Assembly: GCF_004010195.1 (NCBI RefSeq)
Contig: NC_057752.1
Span: 16,153,360 to 16,173,359, forward strand
Reading direction: 5' to 3'
Length of the DNA: 20,000 nt
Origin: Chiloscyllium plagiosum
Lineage: Eukaryota
Position numbers and translations under genes: made by a program. This document shows positions 1,041-19,992 of the stretch, in pieces. Under the pieces are notes generated by a model. The model was not told the origin of the DNA. It worked only from the letters and a program-made list of their open reading frames with translations, and searched no databases. The stretch's first letter is position 1. Each line of letters begins with the position of its first letter.

Positions 1041-1138
1041 CCTTTCTTTATATTACAGCTTAAAGGTGATGAATCGTTCCAAAGCCCTTCACTTGTGCAT
1101 TGGACAGTAAACAGTAAACATTGGGCCATATTAAAACT

Positions 1139-1274
1139 TTCGAGGAGGAAGTGAGGACTGCAGGTGCTGGAGATCAGAGCTGATAATGTGTTGCTGGAAA
1201 AGAGCAGCAGGTCAGGCAGCATCCAAGGAGCAGGAGAATCGACATTTCGGGCATAAGACAGCAACACATTTTCA
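1139..1274. mobile_element. Penelope-like terminal-repeat fragment with short inverted arm (fold-back copy 1)
   Basis: Nearly identical to 4188-4262 (AATGTGTTGCTGGAAAAG...GGAGAATCGAC.TTTCGGGCAT). CAGCAACACATTTTCAGC at 1259-1276 is the inverse of about 1179-1196. Flanked by direct repeat GCCATATTAAAACT (1125-1138 and 1275-1288). Confidence 0.75.
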
Positions 1275-1879
1275 GCCATATTAAAACTGGTGAACTTTCG
1301 AGNNNNNNNNNNNNNNNNNNNNNNNNNNNNNNNNNNNNNNNNNNNNNNNNNNNNNNNNNNNNNNNNNNNNNNNNNNNNNNNNNNNNNNNNNNNNNNNNNN
1401 NNNNNNNNNNNNNNNNNNNNNNNNNNNNNNNNNNNNNNNNNNNNNNNNNNNNNNNNNNNNNNNNNNNNNNNNNNNNNNNNNNNNNNNNNNNNNNNNNNNN
1501 NNNNNNNNNNNNNNNNNNNNNNNNNNNNNNNNNNNNNNNNNNNNNNNNNNNNNNNNNNNNNNNNNNNNNNNNNNNNNNNNNNNNNNNNNNNNNNNNNNNN
1601 NNNNNNNNNNNNNNNNNNNNNNNNNNNNNNNNNNNNNNNNNNNNNNNNNNNNNNNNNNNNNNNNNNNNNNNNNNNNNNNNNNNNNNNNNNNNNNNNNNNN
1701 NNNNNNNNNNNNNNNNNNNNNNNNNNNNNNNNNNNNNNNNNNNNNNNNNNNNNNNNNNNNNNNNNNNNNNNNNNNNNNNNNNNNNNNNNNNNNNNNNNNN
1801 NNTCAATATTTCTCCCAAACAATGTCCTAAAACTCAAAGTATTGCCTGACTGTCAACTATCAAATCAAGGTCACTTTTG

Positions 1880-2970
1880 AACAAATATAGGAGCAGGCCC
1901 CTCAGCCCATCAATCCTGCCCCCTCCCCCACCCCCAACTGGTCTGATCACCCCCACACTCACACTGACCCCTTGAGAACCTCTCACCCTCTCTCCCCACT
2001 GCATCTAAAATATTCCAAGGATCCTGCTCCCACCATCTCTCAGGGAGAAAGTTCCAAAGAGTCCCAGCTGTCTGGGAGGTAAAGCTTTTCCCCATCCCTG
2101 TCCGAAATGGGGGGGGGGGGGCTTCTTTTTAATCATTGACCCCTCGTTCTCAATTCTCCCACAGAGTGGGATCTTCCCCTACGTACCCGCCCGGTCAGGA
2201 CCCCTCCAGATCTGGTATGGTCCCATCCATCACCTCAAATTCTAAACTCCAGCAGAGCCCAGCCCAGAAGTTCCTACCTCTCCTCATGAGGCAATCTGTC
2301 CTGAGTGTTAACCTGAAAAACCTCCACTGAATTGTTTCCAATGCACTTACACCCTTCAATCCATAAGGAGACCAAGACTGTACACAGTGCTATAGATGTG
2401 ATCTCACTGCTGCTCTGTATAACTGAAACATAACCCCCTTACCCTTTACCTGATAAAGTGTAATATCCTACCAGGTAAAAACAATGACTGCAGATGCTGG
2501 AAACCAGATTCTGGATCAGTGGTGCTGGAAGAGCACAGCAATTCAGGCAGCATCCAAGGAGCTTCGAAATTGACGTTTTGGGCAAAAGCCCTTCATCAGG
2601 AATAATGAAGGGCTTTTTCCTGAAATGTCGATTTTGCCTGTCCTCGGATTTTGCCTGTCCTCGGATGCTGCCTGAACTGCTGTGCTCTTCCAGCACCACT
2701 AATCCTGTAATATCCTACCAGCCTTCCGAATTGCTGTGTACCAACCTCGTGTGCTTTATGCCAGAGCCCAGAGTACTGCAACCTCCCACTGTTCAGATCA
2801 TCAGCTTCTGTTGCTTATTCTTTCTGCCAATGTTGATAATTTCACATTTTCTCATGTTGCACTCCACTTGGGAGATCTTTGCTCATTTATTGAACCTAAT
2901 TATATTCCTTTGCAGCTCGTTATGATTGATTCACAATTCAGGTTTCTACTCACTTGGTGTTATTAGCCAC
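1880..2970 (-). mobile_element. Degraded CR1-type LINE 3' region, interrupted by the 2475-2705 insertion
   Basis: Minus-strand remnants of CR1 RT C-terminus and 3' end (CAATGTGAGAAAATGTGAAATTAT-like, HCVQSWSPY-like motif near 2365-2390, GTLWNFLPER near 2040-2070); tail-like sequence near 1885. Confidence 0.7.
2475..2705. mobile_element. Penelope-like fold-back insertion with two opposed degenerate hammerhead motifs (copy 2)
   Basis: 16-bp target-site duplication TGTAATATCCTACCAG (2459-2474 and 2706-2721). Inverted arms at about 2514-2555 and 2663-2705. Minus-strand CTGATGAAGGGCTTTTGCCCAAAACGTC (2572-2599) and plus-strand ATGAAGGGCTTTTTCCTGAAATGTC (2605-2629). Confidence 0.85.
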
Positions 2971-3002
2971 CCGTACCTCTGGCCCCTTCATCCTAGCCGT
3001 TT

Positions 3003-3086
3003 GGGTGTTCAAATCCGGGACCCCAGAACATCAGCTGGGTCTCTGGATTAACAGTCCAGCGATAATATCACTAGGCCATCACCTTC
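3003..3086 (-). mobile_element. tRNA-derived SINE head (SacSINE1/DeuSINE-like)
   Basis: Minus strand GATGGCCTAGTGATATTATCGCTGGACTGTTAATCCAGAGACCCAG...GGATTTGAAC shows an A-box-like TGGCCTAGTG and a degenerate B-box. Confidence 0.65.
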
Positions 3087-3098
3087 CAGAGCAAAACC

Positions 3099-3100
3099 AC

Positions 3101-3128
<28 letters not shown>
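3099..3128. repeat. (AG)n microsatellite
   Basis: Direct reading of the AG dinucleotide run. Confidence 0.95.
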
Positions 3129-3131
<3 letters not shown>

Positions 3132-3149
3132 CACGAGAGGTAACTGTAC

Positions 3150-3293
3150 CTGGATTGCAATGGGAATTAATTCATCCTGTGGATTCACGTACAAAAGACA
3201 CATTGGTGCTTCAAGATATCGCTGATCTCCACAGATTGAATGGGCAGGAATTTCATCCAGCAGCTCATAATCAACAAGGAAAATATTTCCTTT
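3150..3293 (-). CDS. ALOXE3-like: Lipoxygenase (ALOXE3/ALOX12B-like) internal exon, 144 nt, phase 0 to 0
   Basis: Acceptor gtttcag|AAA, donor CAG|gtacag. Encodes [48 protein letters not shown], matching the animal LOX motif G(N/S)(I/L)F..D...L....APxCLL.......L.P(I/L)AIQ. Paralog assignment is tentative. Confidence 0.93.
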
Positions 3294-3699
3294 CTGAAAC
3301 AGGAATGTGACCAGTGAAAGTTTTGTCAAAAGCAGCAGGAATGTTTACCAAGAGAAGGACAGTTTATAGAGGGGAAGCATACAGAATCTCCCGAGACAAG
3401 TCAGCAAACCGACCCCCTCTCCCCAAAACTCCCATTGAACAAATGGCACAACTCAAGCACTGGCATTGTGTGCATAGTTCATAAAAACTATGTCACACAG
3501 GTTGGAAATTACAAACCCATGAAACTAAAAGGGCAAAGCTCTCTCTTAAAGAAACAAGTGGAATCCCCAGTGTCAATATTACAGACAGCATGGATGTGAC
3601 GTAAACCTCAATCTAACCCTGGTTGGGTCAGAGCGAGAGGATTTGATCCAACTCTTGTACTCCACACAGTCACAAGATGTCAAAGTCTGGGAGAGATGG

Positions 3700-3950
3700 T
3701 CATAGAGAGCAGGGAGGAGGGCTTTCAGTGAACATGGAGAGACTGAAAAATGGATTCTTATCATCAGAGGGAAAAAGGTGAAAACAAGGGGTAAGAGAAC
3801 CAGACGAGGTGAGGGTGCTGAGAATGTTTGAAGGTATGGGCAGTGGAAGCAGTTTCAGTTGGAACTTTCGAAACGGGAAGTGGAGAAGCATATGAAGGGA
3901 GAATGCTTAGCAAGGCCACACGCTCAGAGCGGGAGGGAGATGGGAGTGTG
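3700..3950 (+). mobile_element. Highly degraded CR1-type LINE 3' fragment
   Basis: Remnant resembling a CR1 3' end (GCAGTGGAAGCAGTTTCAGTTGGAACTTTCGAAACGGGAAGTGGAGAAGCATATGAAGGG). Confidence 0.45.
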
Positions 3951-4187
3951 TGTTTTCAAACGATACTGTGATGTTAATACGTCCTGAGCATCTTCCTACA
4001 CATTACTGCACTTCCATTATTAACATCCCAATAAATACAGTCTGAGCATTATCCCCAAAATATCTTACAGTTCTAGTAATAGTTATTAATATTATGACAG
4101 CAAAGTGCAGAAAAGTGAGCCTGGAGTAGGTTTATTGTAGCTTTGGCAATACAGATTTGATGGGCTGATGGGCTGATTTCTGGCTCT

Positions 4188-4524
4188 GAAAATGTGCTGC
4201 GGGAAAAGCGCAGCAGGTCAGGCAACATCCAAGGAACAGGAGAATCGACGTTTCGGGCATGAGCCCTTCTTCAGGAATGAGGGAAGTGTGCCAAGCAGGC
4301 TAAGATAAAAGGTAGGGAGGAGGGACTTGGGGGAGGGGCGTTGGGAATGCGATAGGTGGAAGGAGGTCAAGGTGAGGGTGATAGGCCGGAGTGGGGGTGA
4401 GGGCGGAGAGGTCAGGAAGAAGATTGCAGGTTAGGAAGGTGGTGCTGAGTTCGAGGGTTGGGATTCTCCTGCTCCTTGGATGCTGCCTGACCTGCTGTGC
4501 TTTTCCAGCAACACATTTTCAGCT
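4188..4524 (-). mobile_element. Penelope-like element 3' fragment with inverted terminal arm (fold-back copy 3)
   Basis: 15-bp target-site duplication CTGATTTCTGGCTCT (4173-4187 and 4525-4539). Arms at about 4188-4246 and 4462-4520 are near-perfect inverted repeats. The purine-rich middle is the complement of a pyrimidine-rich PLE-like 3' region. Confidence 0.85.
4242..4278 (-). ncRNA. Minimal hammerhead ribozyme motif (Penelope type)
   Basis: Minus strand AUUC-CUGAAGA-A-GGGC-UCAU-GCCC-GAAA-C-GUC-GAUUC: conserved CUGANGA and GAAA boxes, perfect 4-bp stem II, GUC triplet, palindromic ACGU stem III. Confidence 0.75.
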
Positions 4525-4857
4525 CTGATTTCTGGCTCTTTCTTGTTCTCTGATTCTACCAACAAAGACTCCCTCCCATTAACTATCCGGAACACTGAAG
4601 AAAGAGCCTTCGGTCCCTGTCACAAATTCCGAGTCCCTCGTCATTAACTCCTTCTCTCTTGCTGCCTTTATCAGAGACTGCCTCCAGGACAGCTCAGTTC
4701 GAAAATTCTTGTCCTTCTTTTCAAATCCCCATCCCCAACCTGTCCCCTGTGGTTTCTCAGTGGTGGGAAACATCAGGCTGTTTTGTCCCCCTACTGCCCC
4801 AATACCTGCTTCAGAGACTAGGCTGGCCTCTGCCTCTCATATAGCACCTCGGGAGGT

Positions 4858-5582
4858 TAGAATAGAACAGAATGCCCACAGTGTGGAAACTGGCCATTTG
4901 GCCCATCAAGTCCACACTGAACCTCCAAACAGCATCCCACCCAATCCCACTCCTCTACAGTATACCTGTCAACTTGCAATTCCCATGGCCAATCCACCCT
5001 AACCTGCATATCCCTGGGCACTATGGGACAATTTCCCACGGCCAACCCACCCTAACCTGCACATCCCTGGGCATTATGGGACAATTTCCCATTGCCAACC
5101 CACCCTAACCTGCACATCCCTGGGCACTATGGGACAATTTCCCACAGCCAACCCACCCTAACCTGTACATCCCTGGACACTCTGGGACAATTTCCCATGG
5201 TCAACCCACCCTAACCTGCACGTCCCTGGGCACTATGGGACAATTTCCCATGGCCAACCCACCCTAACCTGCACATCCCTGGACACTCTGGGACAATTTC
5301 CCATGGCCAACCCACCCTAACCTCCACATCCCTGGGCACTATGGGACAATTTCCCACAGCCAACCCACCCTAACCTGCACATCCCTGGGCACTATGGGAC
5401 AATTTCCCATGGCCAACCCACCATAACCTGCACATCGTTTTGACTGTGGGAGGAAACCAAAGCACTCGGAGGAAACCCACGCAGACACGGGGAGAATGTG
5501 CAAATTCCATACAAACAGTCGCTCAAGGCTGGAATTAAACCTTGTGCTGTGATGCAGCAGTGCTAATGACAGGGCCACTGTG
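4858..5582 (-). mobile_element. V-SINE (HE1-like) with tandemly amplified internal segment
   Basis: tRNA-like head at about 5530-5580, V-domain TTTGCACATTCTCCCCGTGTCTGCGTGGGTTTCCTCC...TTTCCTCCCACAGTC at about 5440-5505, CR1-like tail with short repeat at about 4858-4920. Confidence 0.88.
4980..5436. repeat. 53-bp tandem array, about 8.5 copies, inside the SINE
   Basis: CTAACCTGCACATCCCTGGGCACTATGGGACAATTTCCCATGGCCAACCCACC starts at 4999, 5052, 5105, 5158, 5211, 5264, 5317, 5370 and partially 5423. Confidence 0.95.
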
Positions 5583-6971: not shown

Positions 6972-7208
6972 ACTGGTTCATCACAGGATGACTTGGCTGG
7001 TGAACCACGATGGGATGGTTTGCAATGATAGATTCTCCCAGGAACATCAGCAAATTCTGGGAATGTTTAGCATTTCTCAGTGAAAACAGTTCCAACAAGG
7101 CCAGCAGGAAATCATGAAAGGCAGGTCCTGCACCCACAAACAATGAGGTGAACCATGTCTGTCTCATTTAACTGACCAACAGGTCACCAACCAGACCCCA
7201 GCTGGCCT

Positions 7209-7561
7209 GACCATCACCCCAACACCCTCCCCCCCAGACTGTCACCCCAACACTCCCATGACCATCACCCCAACACCCACCACCCAGACTGTCACCCCAA
7301 CACTCCCATGACCATCACCCCAACACCCACCACCCAGACTGTCACCCCAACACTCCCATGACCATCACCCCAACACCCACCACCCAGACTGTCACCCCAA
7401 CACTCCCATGACCATCACCCCAACACCCACCACCCAGACTGTCACCCCAACACTCCCATGACCATCACCCCAACACCCACCACCCAGACTGTCACCCCAA
7501 CACTCCCATGACCATCACCCCAACACCCACCACCCAGACTGTCACCCCAACACTCCCATGA
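7209..7561. repeat. 50-bp minisatellite, at least 7 copies, running into a gap
   Basis: GACCATCACCCCAACACCCACCACCCAGACTGTCACCCCAACACTCCCAT at 7260, 7310 through 7510, plus a diverged first copy at 7209. Confidence 0.97.
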
Positions 7562-8589: not shown

Positions 8590-9053
8590 GCAGCGATCTG
8601 CCCTGCAGATAAGTACAGAGGAAATCAACAAAAGATATACATAGGTGAAATGAGTAGACAAAACTTAGCAGATGCAGTATAATGATGGAAAATGTGAGCT
8701 TCTGCACTTTGGCAGGAAGAACTGAAGAGCTGAATATTATTTAAAAGGAGAAAGGCAGCAGAAAGCTATGGATCAGAGCGATTTGGGAGATTCTGTCCAT
8801 GAATCACAAGGCGCCAACATTCGATGTCAGCAGGTAATGGGGAAGGCAAATGGAATGTTAGCCTTTATTTCAAAGGGAACAGAACATAGAAATAGTGAGG
8901 CTTTTCTAAAACTATATAAGACACCTATTAGGCCACACCTCGAATACTTTGAACAGTTCTGGGTCCCTTACTGAAATAAAGACACACAGACATTGGAGGC
9001 TGGTTCACTCAGCTGATCCTGATGATGGAGGAACTGTCTTATGGAGGAGAAGG
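8590..9053 (+). mobile_element. Older CR1-type LINE RT C-terminal fragment (left part)
   Basis: QMQYNxGKCExLHFGRKN-like sequence at 8670-8722; ORF 8768-8974 reads GKANGMLAFISKG...KLYKTPIRPHLEYFEQFWVPY. Confidence 0.85.
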
Positions 9054-12000
9054 TAGAGTCATAGAGTCACAGGGATGTACAGCACGGAAACACATCCTAC
9101 AGTCCAACTCACCCATGCCAACCAGATATCCTAAACCAATCTAGTCCCATTTACCAGCACATATCCCTCCATACCCTTCCTATTCATATACCCATCCAGA
9201 TGCCTTTTAAATGCTGTAATTGTACCAGCCTCCATTACTTCCTCTGGCAGCTCATTCCATACACACACCACCCTCTGCGTGACAAAGTTGCCCCTTAGGT
9301 CCCTTTTATATCTTTCCCCTCTCAACCTAAACCTATACCCTCTAGTTCTGGATTCCCCCACCCCAGGGAAAAGACTTTGCCTATTTATCCTATCCATGCC
9401 CCTCATAATTTTGTAAACCTCTATAAGGTCACCCCTCNNNNNNNNNNNNNNNNNNNNNNNNNNNNNNNNNNNNNNNNNNNNNNNNNNNNNNNNNNNNNNN
9501 NNNNNNNNNNNNNNNNNNNNNNNNNNNNNNNNNNNNNNNNNNNNNNNNNNNNNNNNNNNNNNNNNNNNNNNNNNNNNNNNNNNNNNNNNNNNNNNNNNNN
9601 NNNNNNNNNNNNNNNNNNNNNNNNNNNNNNNNNNNNNNNNNNNNNNNNNNNNNNNNNNNNNNNNNNNNNNNNNNNNNNNNNNNNNNNNNNNNNNNNNNNN
9701 NNNNNNNNNNNNNNNNNNNNNNNNNNNNNNNNNNNNNNNNNNNNNNNNNNNNNNNNNNNNNNNNNNNNNNNNNNNNNNNNNNNNNNNNNNNNNNNNNNNN
9801 NNNNNNNNNNNNNNNNNNNNNNNNNNNNNNNNNNNNNNNNNNNNNNNNNNNNNNNNNNNNNNNNNNNNNNNNNNNNNNNNNNNNNNNNNNNNNNNNNNNN
9901 NNNNNNNNNNNNNNNNNNNNNNNNNNNNNNNNTCTATCTTTCAGTCAGTTCTGTATCCAAATGGCTAGTTCTCCCTGTATTCCGTGAGATCTAACCTTGC
10001 TAACCAGTCACCCATGGGGAACCTTATTGAACGCCTCACTGAAGTCCATATAGATCATGTCCACCACTCTGCCCTCATCAATCCTCTTCATTACTTCTTC
10101 AAAAAAATCAGTCAAGTTATTGAGACATGATTTCCCATGCACAAAGCCATGTTGACTATCCCTAATTAGTCCTTGCCTTTCCAAATACATGTAAATCCTG
10201 TCCCTCAGGATTCCCTCCAACAACTTGCCCACTATCAATGTCAAGCTCACTGGTCTGTAGTTCCCTGGCTTGTCAACCTCCAGTCTTCCGGCACCTCACC
10301 TAACTATTGATGATGCAAATATCTCAGCAAAGGGCCCAGCAATCACTTCCCTAGCTTCCCTCAGTGTTTTAGGGTACATCGGATCAGGTCCTGGAGATTT
10401 ATCCAGTTTTATGCATTTCAAGACACCCAACACTTCCTCCTCTGTAATATGGACATTTTTCAAGATGTCACCATCTATTTCCCTACATTCTCTATCTTCC
10501 ATGTCCTTCTCCACAGTAAATACTGATGCAAAATACACGTTTGGTATCTCCCCCTCATCTCCTGTGGCTCCATACAAAGGCCGTCTTGTTGATCTTTGAG
10601 GGGCCCTATTCTCTCCCTAGTTACCCTTTTGTCCTAAATATATTTGTAAAAACTCTTTGGATTCTCCTTAATCCTATTTGCCAAAGTTATCTCATGTCCC
10701 AGTTTTGCCCTCCTGATTTCCTCCTTAAGTATACTCCTACTTTCTTTATACTCTTCTAAGGATTCACTTGATCTATTCTGTCTATACCTATTATATGTTT
10801 CCTTCTTTTTCTTAACCAAACCCTCAATTTCTTTAGTCATCCAGCATTCCCTATACCTACCAGCTTTTCCTTTCACCCCGACAGGATTATACTTTCTCTG
10901 GATTCTTGCGAACATCTGCCCCCAATCAGCTTTTGAAAGTTCTTGTCTAATACCATCAAAATTGACCTTCCTCCAATTTAAAACTTCAACTTTTAGATCT
11001 GGTCTATCCTTTTCCATCACTAATTTAAATCTAATAGAATTATGGTCGCTGGCCCCAAAGTGCGCCCCCACTGACACCTCAGTCACCTGCCCTGCCTTAT
11101 TTCCCAAAAGTAGGTCAAGTTTTGCACCTTCTCTAGTAGGTACATCCACATACTGAATCAGAAAATTGTCTTGTACAGACTTAACAAATTCCTCTCCATC
11201 TGAACCTTTAACACTATGGCAGTCCCAGTCTATGTTTGGAGAGTTAAAATCCCCTACCATAACCATCCTATTATTCTTACAGATAGCTGAGATCTCCTTA
11301 CAAGTTTGTTTCTCAATTTCCTGCTGACTATTAGGGGATCTATAATACAATCCCAGTAAGGGGATCATCCCTTTCTTACTCCTCAGTTCCACCCAAACAT
11401 CTTCCCTGGATGTATTCCCAGAATATCCCTCCTAAGCACAGCGGTAATGCTATCCCTTATCAAAAATGCCACTCCCCCTCCTCTCTGCCCCCCCTTTGTA
11501 TCCTGGAACATTAAGCTGCCAGTCCTGTCCATCCCTGAGTCATATTTCTGTAATTGCTATGATATCCCAGTCCCATGTTCCTCACCATGCCCTGAGTTCA
11601 GCTGCCTTCCCTATTAGGCCTCTTGCATTGAAATAAATGCAGTTTAATTTATCAGTCTTACCTTGTCCCTGCTTGCCCTGACTGTTTGATTCGCTTCTTT
11701 TTCCAACTGTACCAGTCTCAGATTGATCTCTTTCCTCTCTATCTCCCCTTCCAATTCAGGTGCAGTCCATCCTTCCTGTACAGGTCACTTCTACCCCAGA
11801 AGAGATTCCAATGATCCAGAAATGTGAATCCTTCTCCAATACACCAGCTCCTCAGTCACACATTCATCTGCTCTATCCTCCTATTCCTACCCTCACGAGC
11901 TTGTAGCACCAGGGGTAATCCAGACATTACTATCCTCGAGGACCTCCTTTTTAAATTCCTGCCTAACTCCCTGTAATGTCCCTTCAGAATCTCATCCTTT

Positions 12001-12438
12001 TCCCTTCCTATGTCATTAGTTCCAATGTGTGCAATGACCTCCTGCTGGTCACTCTCCCCTTTGAGAACATCCTGCACCCTCTCTGAAATATCCTGGATCC
12101 TGGCACCAGGGAAACAACACACCATTCTGATTTTTCGCTGCTTGCCACAGAAACGTCTGTCTGTGCTTCTGACTAAAGAGCCTGCTATCACAATCAATTG
12201 CTTGGAACCCAACGTACCCCTCATTACATTAGAGCCAGTCTCAATAACAGGAACTTGGCTGTTTGTGCTACATTCCCCTGAGAGTCTATCATCCCCTACA
12301 TTTTCCAAAACAGCATACTTGTTTGAAATGGGGATAGCCACTGAAGACTCCTGCACTACCTGCCTCCCTCTCCTACCTTTCCTGGAGGTAACCCATCTAC
12401 CGATTGTACCATCTTTGCTCCTTCACAATCTACAGACC
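9054..12438 (-). mobile_element. Long CR1 LINE with esterase-type ORF1 remnant and APE/RT ORF2 remnants (disrupted)
   Basis: ORF1 11856-12356 (LIVIAGSLVR...FPGARIQD...HIGTND, SGNH-like); endonuclease 10634-11392 (YYRSP, VGDFN, LDLLL, SDHN); RT pieces 10008-10577 (KSPGPD, QHGF, DFSEAFNKVPH); 3' end 9131-9406; tail repeat TAGAGTCA at 9054-9069. Confidence 0.93.
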
Positions 12439-16416: not shown

Positions 16417-16800
16417 ACTTGGAAATGGAGCAAACATTGAGGAGGGTAAAAGGACTTCAAGAGGACACAGATTGGTATAATGACACGTCATGTAACACAC
16501 AGAAGAATTAGGAGATTATATCTGATAAAGAGGAAAAGGGCTGAGGCAATATAGACCAAATGTTACAACTTTAAAGGGACCGCAGGAGGAAACGTTTGTG
16601 TCAGCACAAACAAGGTCACTTTGCAACAGCTACAACTGTTAGAGCTTGAGATAAGATTTACTAAGAGAGGGTCAGAATACAGAAGTAAAGATGTTGCACT
16701 GAACCTTGCTTGTCAAATGTTGTGTCTCAGCTGGAGGGTTGTTTGCACTGCTGTCGGGAAACTGAGCTGTGTTTAGGTTCTAGAAGGTTTTAACAGAAGC
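16417..16800 (+). mobile_element. Old degraded LINE RT fragment (right part, continuing 13880-14269)
   Basis: CTTGGAAATGGAGCAAACATTGAGGAGGG...CTTCAAGAGGACACAGA (LG...EE...LQEDTD, post-FADD motif); GAATACAGAAGTAAAGATGTT (EYRSKDV). Confidence 0.6.
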
Positions 16801-16809
16801 TGTCGAGTT

Positions 16810-17930
16810 GTTTAACAGCACAGAAGGAAGAGATTTGGCCCATTTGGTTTATAGTGCAATCACTCCATGGTGTAATCCAATCAATGCCATTCACCTTGCA
16901 GGTTTAACCCCTTGAAGTGAATCTCCAATCTCCTTTTGAGATCATTGACTGATCCTGCTCCCAGCTCATTACCATTTGCTGCATAAAATGATTCTTGCTC
17001 ACATTGCTCCATGTACCTCCTGCCCCAAACCGTAAACCATTCCCTCAGCTTTGGCCCAGCAGCTAACAGACAGTGTTTTTCTCCCATTAACTTGATCTAA
17101 ACTGCTATAACGCTGTACAAAATCTTCATCAAATCTAATCTCAAGCTCTAACAGTTGTAGCTATTGCAAAGTGACCTTGTTTGTAAGAGACTCACTTCCC
17201 CATTCTCTAGATCCTCAGCAGGACAGTCACACTCACCCAAAGTGTGGGGACGTGCTCTGGCTGCAATCTAACAACCAATGTTTAGCATCACCGCCCTGTT
17301 TCTGTACTCAATACATCTATTCATCAAAGCTGAGGGTCCACAATTTACTCATTGTTCTCAATATATTCTATCACACTCAAGGATCAATAGACTCCCAGGT
17401 CCCTCTGACTCAGCACATTCTATACAACTTGGCCGTCAAATGTACATTGACTCACACCATTCCATTCCATGGAACTGTACTTTATAGCTTACCACTGAAC
17501 TCTGACTGCTGCTTGCCTGCTCAGTTCTGCTACTGCATCCCTGATCTGTTTAAATCATTCATATTGCTCTCAGCGTTTGCCATTCCATCCAAAACCCAAG
17601 CTCTCAGGTCTACTCAGAAAAATATTGATCACGGGCCTTTCTTTTGTTCTTGAGTCATTTCATTTCGTCCACCAGCCTCAGTTTTACCAAGTGGACCTTT
17701 CAGTGGTAACTTGTCAATGGCTTTCTTGAAGTTCAGACAGACAGCATCCACCACATCCACTTCAACATGCTTCTCTGCTGCTTCATCAAAGAGATCCGGT
17801 TATATCTCCAGGTGCCTTTTACAAAGTGGTGCTCACTCTCCATCATTAACTCAGACCAGATAATCAATTTCAAAGCCTCACCCACCGCTGATGTTAAACC
17901 CATCAACCTGTGATTGCTAAGGCTGTGTGA
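16810..17930 (-). mobile_element. Old degraded CR1-type LINE
   Basis: ORF 17733-18113 contains SNHRLMGLTSAVGEAL (NYRPVSLTSVVGK-like); VDVVDAVCLNFKKAIDK near 17710-17760; 3' end remnants at 16810-17100. Confidence 0.7.
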
Positions 17931-19832: not shown

Positions 19833-19992
19833 AGAGGGGGTTACAGAGGTAGGGAGGGGGTGTAGGGGCTGGAGGGGGTTACAGAGATAGGGAGGGGGTT
19901 TAGGGGCCAGAGGGGGGTTACAGAGATAGGGAGGGGATGGAGGGTCTGGATGGGGTTACAGTGATAGGGAGGGGGTGTAAAGGCTGGAGGGA
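19833..19992. repeat. About 38-bp G-rich minisatellite, about 4 copies, possibly derived from an L2-type LINE 3' segment
   Basis: TTACAG recurs at 19841, 19879, 19918 and 19956; unit approximately GGAGGGGGTTACAGAGATAGGGAGGGGGTGTAGGGGCT. An L2-like remnant lies at about 19735-19800. Confidence 0.85.

Follow-up and report, generated by a model that had tools for sequence, protein, structure and literature searches.

Penelope-like insertion units and the three inserts

The insertion units of EN+ Penelope-like elements (PLEs) of the clades Penelope/Poseidon, Neptune and Nematis are described, in the portions of two studies available to us, as a pLTR with an adjoining inverted, 5'-truncated copy and a tail of 30-40 bp (PMC3846280, PMC8557442). 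Minimal hammerheads have been reported in opposite-strand pairs 100-700 bp apart, with scattered motifs ascribed to truncated PLEs, and the accessible part of that report names fish, coelacanth, frog and reptiles, and no shark, as hosts (PMC4209133). With the Anolis carolinensis Poseidon element, in vitro work revealed that two RT start sites bound the tail and that both target strands are cut and extended, that hammerhead cleavage is unnecessary for insertion and that no RNA reads end at the cleavage site (PMC11167929). Non-LTR retrozymes are characterized, in the available sections of two further sources, by head-to-tail tandem arrays, at least two complete hammerheads and circular RNA (PMC7229834; bioRxiv 10.64898/2026.07.22.740005), and the 2026 survey, in the part available, includes retrozymes found in a chondrichthyan (bioRxiv 10.64898/2026.07.22.740005).

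In the window, i.e. the whole stretch of 20,000 nucleotides of Chiloscyllium plagiosum DNA that was analysed, a first-pass annotation had proposed a cluster of three separate inserts with inverted arms and flanking direct repeats (TSDs), falling into two sequence types. The three inserts, with their inverted arms and flanking repeats, are present in the sequence, and comparison confirmed the two types, one formed by copies 1 and 3 and the other by copy 2. Each insert is built from two 3' ends of a single repeat, arranged head to head and joined at their 5' truncation points (3/3), and contains no ORF. The TSDs are exact and measure 14 bp (copy 1), 16 bp (copy 2) and 15 bp (copy 3). The arms have their outer ends at either of two fixed points separated by 38 nt: four tail-less ends agree within about 3 nt across the inserts, and the two other ends bear a 38-nt tail, which is thus present on one end in two of the three inserts (copies 1 and 2). 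Junctions and lengths are different in all three, with arms ranging from 16 to 273 nt. The clustering is weak, as chance alone would place three points this near one another with a p of about 0.05-0.1 by hand calculation, and no further copy of the repeat was found in the window. We consider it very probable that a highly abundant PLE with two subfamilies gave rise to the inserts in three independent retrotransposition events, and that all three products are dead.

The likeness to EN+ PLE units comprises the head-to-head inverted copy, the optional tail on one end (here 38 nt), the strong 5' truncation and the TSD; the difference is that no ORF is left here and that copy 3 is tail-less on both ends. 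Two further observations speak against the PLE reading, namely that the TSDs, at 14-16 bp, exceed the 8-10 bp of the rotifer EN+ examples given in the available part of PMC3846280, and that the target sites are just 53-71% A+T.

In the following, features are on the plus strand unless the minus strand is given. Copy 1 has its left TSD at 1125-1138 and its right TSD at 1275-1288. Since an extra 10-mer recurs at 1135-1144 and 1293-1302, the duplication may comprise 28 bp (1275-1302, up to the start of a 500-N gap), with a left copy (1125-1144) that lacks 8 bp. The long arm (1143-1257, minus strand) represents the 3' end of the element, is cut off inside hammerhead stem-loop II and has no CUGANGA box. 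The 38-nt tail (1143-1180, minus strand) is confined to this arm and is the same as that of the family loose ends behind position 4529 (see below). The tail-less short inverted arm (1259-1274) is only 16-18 nt long and matches the long arm at 17 of 18 positions.

Copy 2 splits an old LINE fragment (2330-2920, minus strand), and both copies of its TSD (2459-2474 and 2706-2721) match the same 16 positions of a LINE paralog within the window (about 8847-8862), where the sequence is single. Alignments of the flanks to LINE paralogs scored above all 100 shuffles in 7/8 cases, and the TSD overlap is clear on one of four paralogs. A contig from a related species aligns from exactly 2706 and continues for 260 nt past this position without entering the repeat, as expected for an empty site; from this alignment, copy 2 is probably absent from the related species, and its insertion looks young. 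Copy 3 is common to C. plagiosum and the related species. TSDs of 14-16 bp, the single TSD sequence in the paralog and the empty-site-like contig together indicate true insertion. As a control for the TSDs, 3000 size-matched random brackets were drawn from the window, which also contains tandem arrays and the elements themselves; 19 of them gave a direct repeat of at least 14 bp and 2981 one of at most 10 bp, which places the TSDs well beyond chance expectation.

The long arm of copy 2 (2475-2603, minus strand) carries the tail at 2475-2512, and its start lies 4 nt upstream of C3 of the hammerhead; the short inverted arm (2605-2705) is tail-less and starts inside the CUGAUGA box. Between the two arms there are 11 differences in the 42 proximal positions and 3 in the 48 distal ones, including a block of four non-CpG changes. 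Within the short arm, a 17-nt tandem duplication (2630-2663, start ambiguous within 2630-2633) begins at the position that matches the hammerhead cleavage site; it has a 3-nt microhomology, which is enough for slippage.

Copy 3 is bounded by TSDs at 4173-4187 and 4525-4539, the first five bases of the latter also fitting a continuation of the element. Its long arm (4188-4460, minus strand) is tail-less and extends upstream of the hammerhead into some 180 nt of family sequence rich in C. The short inverted arm (4462-4524), likewise tail-less, shows 5 differences in 61 positions to the long arm.

Hammerhead motifs and fold-back of the inserts

The description of all three inserts as hammerhead-associated held in full only for copy 3, where we predict the core of a minimal type I hammerhead at 4247-4274 (minus strand) using a descriptor from PMC4209133. 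This core comprises CUGAAGA, an unpaired A, a 4-bp stem II, GAAA, a palindromic stem III stub and GUC, with a weak stem I; a scan of the window gave no other core that was intact and had a stem II. From its sequence, the ribozyme would be expected to cleave between 4247 and 4246, and the first base of the short arm of copy 3 corresponds to N1.1, directly after this predicted site. In copy 2, the minimal-hammerhead motif (2572-2599, minus strand) has G12 replaced by A, which breaks the core, and copy 1 begins inside stem-loop II. Compared with the minimal hammerhead as defined in the available part of PMC4209133, the core boxes, the unpaired base before stem II, the G10.1-C11.1 pair and the palindromic stem III stub are shared, and the differences are that stem II has 4 bp, that stem I is weak and that only one of the three copies is intact. 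An Rfam search with E-values up to 1 returned three matches and no hammerhead model. Two microRNA models placed on the inner hairpin of copy 2 were rejected as their scores were far below the gathering thresholds.

Hairpin formation, also part of the first-pass annotation, applied to copies 2 and 3, which folded better than their shuffles (z -13.5 and -12.4, respectively), but not to copy 1, whose 16-18-nt arm gave a fold no better than shuffles (z -1.33, 17/200). In the modelled structures, the inverted arm of copy 3 is predicted to pair with the 3' strand of stem I and that of copy 2 with the core, so that folding back would trap the ribozyme.

Family abundance, junctions and coding sequence

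The repeat is very abundant, with 96,333-162,100 matching contigs per run in three contig runs. Across the family we obtained 1,295 different joints, none of which was dominant among the best 15 of these 1,295 joints or the best 12 of 609 junction rows, so that no mini-element of fixed form is apparent in these rows. The deepest joint among the best 15 of 1,295 had a depth of 906, and the arm bins had depths in the millions. Some joints reached depths of 100-900, versus 7-14 for single-copy flank, but the mean depth of a contig can be raised by neighbouring high-copy words and such depths are not proof of a recurrent junction; this observation is a further one against the PLE reading, in that it could mean that a few fold-back forms are re-amplified. 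Joints were overrepresented at 2603 and 4462, which was discarded as evidence, both positions being ends of the reference arms. Loose ends of both kinds were found family-wide, as low-agreement flanks behind 4510-4519 and as a tail consensus behind 4529. Upstream of the hammerhead, depth dropped steeply from 5.07M to 1.33M in run X5, and from 633 to 141 in raw RNA. RNA run X21 contained 3,312 matching reads in both orientations, 117 of them at 99% or more, with no pile-up of starts or ends; this is a polyA single-cell run of which about 2 in 100 were read, a library type blind to short or circular RNA.

The linkage to RT or GIY-YIG ORFs, which the first-pass annotation had named as a check, was sought in four protein searches with translations of 37-52 aa, weak tests in which no such ORF was found; by protein, 0/40 candidates in one search and 0/15 in another led to RT or GIY-YIG. 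Among 8 chosen frames of the window, none carried an RT or GIY-YIG domain attached to the repeat, the RT matches belonging to APE-type LINE fragments. One of the protein searches yielded a single match, a hypothetical protein of 96 aa from Chiloscyllium punctatum, and another yielded two, both FUBP3-like models of C. plagiosum that end in the repeat (28/32 residues matching in one such model); these hits are shark gene models into which the repeat has been drawn. Exact-pattern scans gave 0 and 0 matches in viral contigs and 0 in GTDB genomes. The 48 metagenome loci picked up by exact pattern were taken as chance, the best 15 alignments spanning 22-34 nt and covering the pattern only. Membership in the PLEs is thus read from architecture and motif and not from coding sequence, the ORF link having been sought without success. 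A search by title and abstract, with Repbase, Dfam and most subscription journals outside its range, revealed no literature on hammerhead cleavage at Penelope inversion junctions or on template switching there, and the family may well be catalogued already.

Origin of the inverted arms

The first-pass annotation had left a choice between severely truncated PLE insertions and a separate non-autonomous, retrozyme-like family, and our results fit the first of these and do not support the second. Truncated PLE insertions fit the head-to-head 3' ends, the optional 38-nt tail, the TSDs and the minimal-hammerhead motif, and the many different junctions across the family fit an inversion made afresh at each integration. 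Based on published PLE work, the GIY-YIG endonuclease would nick both target strands about 15 bp apart, and the RT would begin at either of two neighbouring internal sites, so that ends come out with or without the tail; the paired start sites and the two-strand cutting of Poseidon (PMC11167929) explain both kinds of ends seen here. Synthesis would break off prematurely, in many cases at the hammerhead or close to it, and within the same integration another inverted copy, a short one, would be joined on, arising either from a second priming event on the opposite strand or by template switching or fold-back. The best explanation for the hairpin is a by-product of integration and no replicating unit.

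A specific form of this integration, which we regard as rather unlikely, is two-ended: each nicked strand would prime RT on a separate RNA, using either of the two start sites, the cDNAs would be joined 5' to 5', and some templates would be hammerhead-cleaved so that RT runs off there. Pointers in this direction are the start of the copy 3 arm at N1.1, the start of the copy 2 duplication at the matching position and, in copy 2, the block of four non-CpG changes between arms that may derive from two templates. All of these pointers are post hoc and come from two copies, and by hand calculation one of six 5' ends is expected on a given base in about 100 in about 6% of cases. The main text of the Poseidon paper leaves the inverted arm unexplained, and an arm starting at the cleavage site as in copy 3 is not predicted by it (PMC11167929).

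It is improbable that the inserts form a discrete, non-autonomous family of fold-backs, similar to retrozymes or SINEs, with PLE proteins acting in trans to re-mobilise a transcript of the entire hairpin. Such a family would agree with the extreme abundance of the terminal 100-130 nt, the sharp fall in depth upstream of the hammerhead and the recurrence of a few junctions in two or three runs at depths of 100-400. It is opposed by three copies with three junctions and arms of such unequal length, by the lack of a dominant joint among the best 15 of 1,295, by two of the three hammerheads being broken and by the predicted pairing of the inverted arm with stem I or the core. Retrozymes, as described in the available sections of the sources above, resemble the inserts in being non-coding, in the type I hammerhead and in their kinship to PLE pLTRs, but each insert stands singly and in head-to-head form, the lengths are unequal and at most one core is intact. 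The head-to-tail repeats of a unit that define non-LTR retrozymes were not found among the 11 TRF rows in the window, and the inserts are therefore not retrozymes.

Still less credit can be given to the idea that the inserts share this PLE origin but acquired the inverted arm after insertion, by local inverted duplication or repair at the DNA level, even though the short arm of copy 1 is merely 16-18 nt long and an unrelated 54-nt inverted duplication without TSD, at 16606-17184, shows that such events occur in the window. The inverted arms of all three inserts directly abut the TSD and stop at one common position of the element, which a later DNA event would not respect; the four-change non-CpG block of copy 2 also sits poorly with copying from a neighbour. 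MITE-like DNA transposons with an incidental hammerhead-like motif would account for a flanking duplication and for inverted repeats at either end but are very improbable, as on the tailed side of copies 1 and 2 the inverted repeat does not reach the terminus, the inner arm ends vary, the TSDs vary in length (14, 15 and 16 bp) and exceed what is usual for cut-and-paste elements, and depth declines away from one end as in 5'-truncated retrocopies.

With regard to integration of truncated PLEs, the layout has already been described for these elements, and the inserts look like ordinary dead-on-arrival stumps. If the two-ended form were true, it would be genomic evidence for ribozyme cleavage of PLEs in vivo and for two templates per insertion. 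A family with so many dated junctions in a shark genome could be used to test both the origin of the inverted arm and hammerhead cutting in vivo, which the PLE papers left open. Since the repeat leaks into shark gene models such as the FUBP3-like ones, annotators should mask it.

Three insertions and their target-site duplications

All three inserts that the first-pass annotation had described as bounded by their own direct repeats of 14-16 bp were found in place, at about 1139-1274 (copy 1), 2475-2705 (copy 2) and 4188-4524 (copy 3), with exact repeats of 14, 16 and 15 bp, respectively. In 3000 random brackets of matched size, repeats were at most 10 bp long in 2981 and at least 14 bp long in 19. 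For copy 2, which sits within an old LINE fragment and splits it in two, the duplication was shown independently, since both 16-mers fell on the same positions (about 8847-8862) of a paralog at 8600-9060 when each flank was aligned on its own; the placement was clear for one of the four LINE paralogs tried. The duplication of copy 1 runs up to a gap of 500 Ns and may be 28 bp long, with 8 bp missing from its left copy. No further copies of the repeat were found elsewhere in the window. The proposed clustering is weak, as the chance of such closeness is about 0.05-0.1 (hand calculation) and the inserts are separate events, given their differences in age and subfamily. Both left junctions were found in a second individual of organism A (run X5). 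In organism B, a related species (run X12) whose flanks differ by about 3-7%, one contig spans the left junction of copy 3 and reaches 4212, so copy 3 is older than the split between organisms A and B. The alignment of another contig of organism B begins exactly at 2706, with 260 more letters upstream that are known by length alone, which is what an empty site lacking copy 2 would give; contigs of organism A (run X1), by contrast, break 20-44 nt inside the repeats.

The window consists of repeat-rich, vertebrate-type DNA, with four N runs, several tandem arrays and LINE fragments matching reverse transcriptase (RT), APE-type endonuclease and, weakly, GDSL-esterase. A decayed long LINE at 10008-12422 (minus strand), which we take to be CR1-like, retains pieces of a GDSL-esterase-like ORF1, an APE-type endonuclease and RT. 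Between copies 2 and 3, a high-copy short repeat at 2988-3068 (three runs gave a summed depth of about 90,000) looks, by eye, like a minus-strand tRNA-derived SINE head. The array at 4980-5580 (8.6 copies of a 53-bp unit, followed by a minus-strand SINE-like head) presumably resembles an HE1 SINE of sharks in which the internal repeat has expanded. Further arrays are a minisatellite at 6-789 (36-bp unit, 21.8 copies, 93% matches, long open frames in both strands), one at 7208-7561 (50-bp unit, 7.1 copies, 99%) abutting an N run, and one of a 38-bp unit at the end of the window (19834-19991). Distinct from the Penelope-like repeat is an inverted duplication at 16606-16659/17131-17184 (54 nt, 96%, arms 471 nt apart), possibly a templated inverted insertion, whose flanking direct repeat never exceeds 9 bp and whose left arm resembles, by eye, a portion of an old LINE fragment.

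Arms, ends and the hammerhead motif

On the element strand, each insert consists of two 3' ends of one repeat, facing outward and fused at their 5' truncation points. Four of the six outer ends map to a single position, give or take about 3 nt, and the remaining pair extend 38 nt beyond it, as tails at 1143-1180 (copy 1) and 2475-2512 (copy 2). In copies 1, 2 and 3, respectively, the long arm starts within hammerhead stem-loop II, 4 nt upstream of C3 and 186 nt upstream of C3, and the short arm 18 nt from the end, within the CUGAUGA box and exactly at N1.1; four of these six starts fall within or adjoin the 28-nt hammerhead core. One frame of copy 1 (1143-1255, minus strand) is open across terminal repeat and tail, as expected if the ORF of a Penelope-like element (PLE) begins in the terminal repeat (pLTR); a protein search using its translation returned no match.

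The hammerhead association, claimed for all three inserts, holds fully for copy 3, whose core (4274 to 4247, minus strand; 4-bp stem II, weak stem I) is the only intact one, but not for copy 2, in which it is changed (G12A), or copy 1, which lacks the 5' box. The copy 3 core has the unpaired base before stem II, the G10.1-C11.1 pair and the palindromic stub of stem III of the minimal descriptor (PMC4209133), and an Rfam search of the window gave no hammerhead match. PLE hammerheads are described as requiring dimers (PMC6765202). Likewise, the fold-back description fits copies 2 and 3, with long predicted hairpins compared to shuffled sequences (z -13.5 and -12.4), but not copy 1 (z -1.33), whose inverted arm measures 16-18 nt. 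In the predicted fold of copy 3, the inverted arm pairs with all bases from N1.1 onward, and in that of copy 2 it pairs with the core, so energy minimisation leads us to expect that the ribozyme would be trapped in a read-through transcript of either copy.

Abundance, junctions and transcripts of the family

The stretch 2340-4740 was compared with four runs at a threshold of 88%, and matched 162,100 contigs in X1, 96,333 in X5 and 130,440 in X12. Summed depth, which is not a copy number, reached millions over the arms versus 7-14 in most single-copy flank bins. Although its depth is lower (from 6.8M to 3.0M and 2.6M in X1, from 5.1M to 1.3M and 0.9M in X5), the C-rich part at 4284-4445 is a repeat as well; it thus belongs to the element, most copies of which end before it. 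Both end types occur among the loose ends: those behind 4529 share a tail consensus, and those behind 4510-4519 lead into flanks of low agreement. Among 12 of 609 junctions, eight depart from the copy 3 long arm, seven of them at 4267-4281, at most 7 nt from C3, and none within 4282-4460, which in this small, selected sample suggests that truncation is concentrated at the 5' edge of the hammerhead. Joints numbered at least 1,295 (deepest 906 among the best 15 of 1,295), several having depths of 100-900 and some recurring in two or three runs, which counts against the reading favoured below. Re-amplification of fold-back forms may explain these depths, but they may instead come from inflated contig means. 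In a polyA single-cell RNA run (X21), of which about 2 in 100 reads were read, 3,312 reads matched in both orientations (117 at ≥99%), mostly from other copies of the repeat, and starts or ends did not pile up in this library type, which is blind to short or circular RNAs.

Element identity and mode of integration

PLE insertions are described as heavily 5'-truncated; they often adjoin an inverted copy, itself 5'-truncated, and carry a 30-40-bp tail (PMC8557442; PMC3846280; PMC8969392), and Penelope is listed among the repeats of the whale shark (PMC8455134). The suggestion of truncated PLEs is supported by architecture, tail, hammerhead motif and target-site duplication, but translation searches and the eight window frames examined gave no link between the repeat and the PLE-defining ORF with RT and GIY-YIG, so that insertion in the manner of a PLE is a firmer claim than membership of a particular PLE clade. 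The inserts are real and of a known kind, very probably left by an abundant Penelope-like element whose truncated copies were inserted head to head. Translated, the repeat also makes up the C-terminal end of Chiloscyllium gene models (P0002 and P0003, FUBP3-like isoforms X1 and X2; P0001, hypothetical protein), with 28 of 32 residues matching in C. plagiosum and 66% in C. punctatum, reflecting either exonisation or an annotation error. These matches mark the host as an elasmobranch of bamboo-shark type.

The inserts combine insertion between target-site duplications, head-to-head 3' ends, two end positions and variable inner junctions. The Poseidon protein is reported to cut and extend both target strands and to start reverse transcription at two adjacent internal sites bounding the tail, hammerhead cleavage being dispensable in vitro (PMC11167929). 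Very probably, the inserts are PLE insertions cut back almost to the terminal repeat, whose inverted arm would have been produced at integration; self-priming on an antisense template has been proposed as its origin (PMC3846280). An unlikely variant, conceived post hoc from two inserts, is that each insertion used two RNA templates, some of them ribozyme-cleaved beforehand. It is allowed because the copy 3 short arm begins at the base following the cleavage site, a 17-nt duplication in the copy 2 short arm begins at the matching position (3 nt ambiguity), and, between the arms of copy 2, mismatches occur at 11 of 42 proximal and 3 of 48 distal positions, including four adjacent proximal changes unexplained by CpG decay, even though copy 2 looks young. 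A retrozyme-like family, the other reading first offered, is not supported. Retrozymes are by definition arranged head to tail, in arrays that include two or more complete hammerheads (bioRxiv 10.64898/2026.07.22.740005; PMC7229834), whereas the window holds neither such an array nor such a pair, and the inserts join 3' ends head to head.

A literature search on cleavage-site starts of the copy 3 type and on template use returned no paper on point by title or abstract. Potentially new are the start of the copy 3 short arm at the cleavage site, the position of the duplication in copy 2 and the mismatch between the copy 2 arms.
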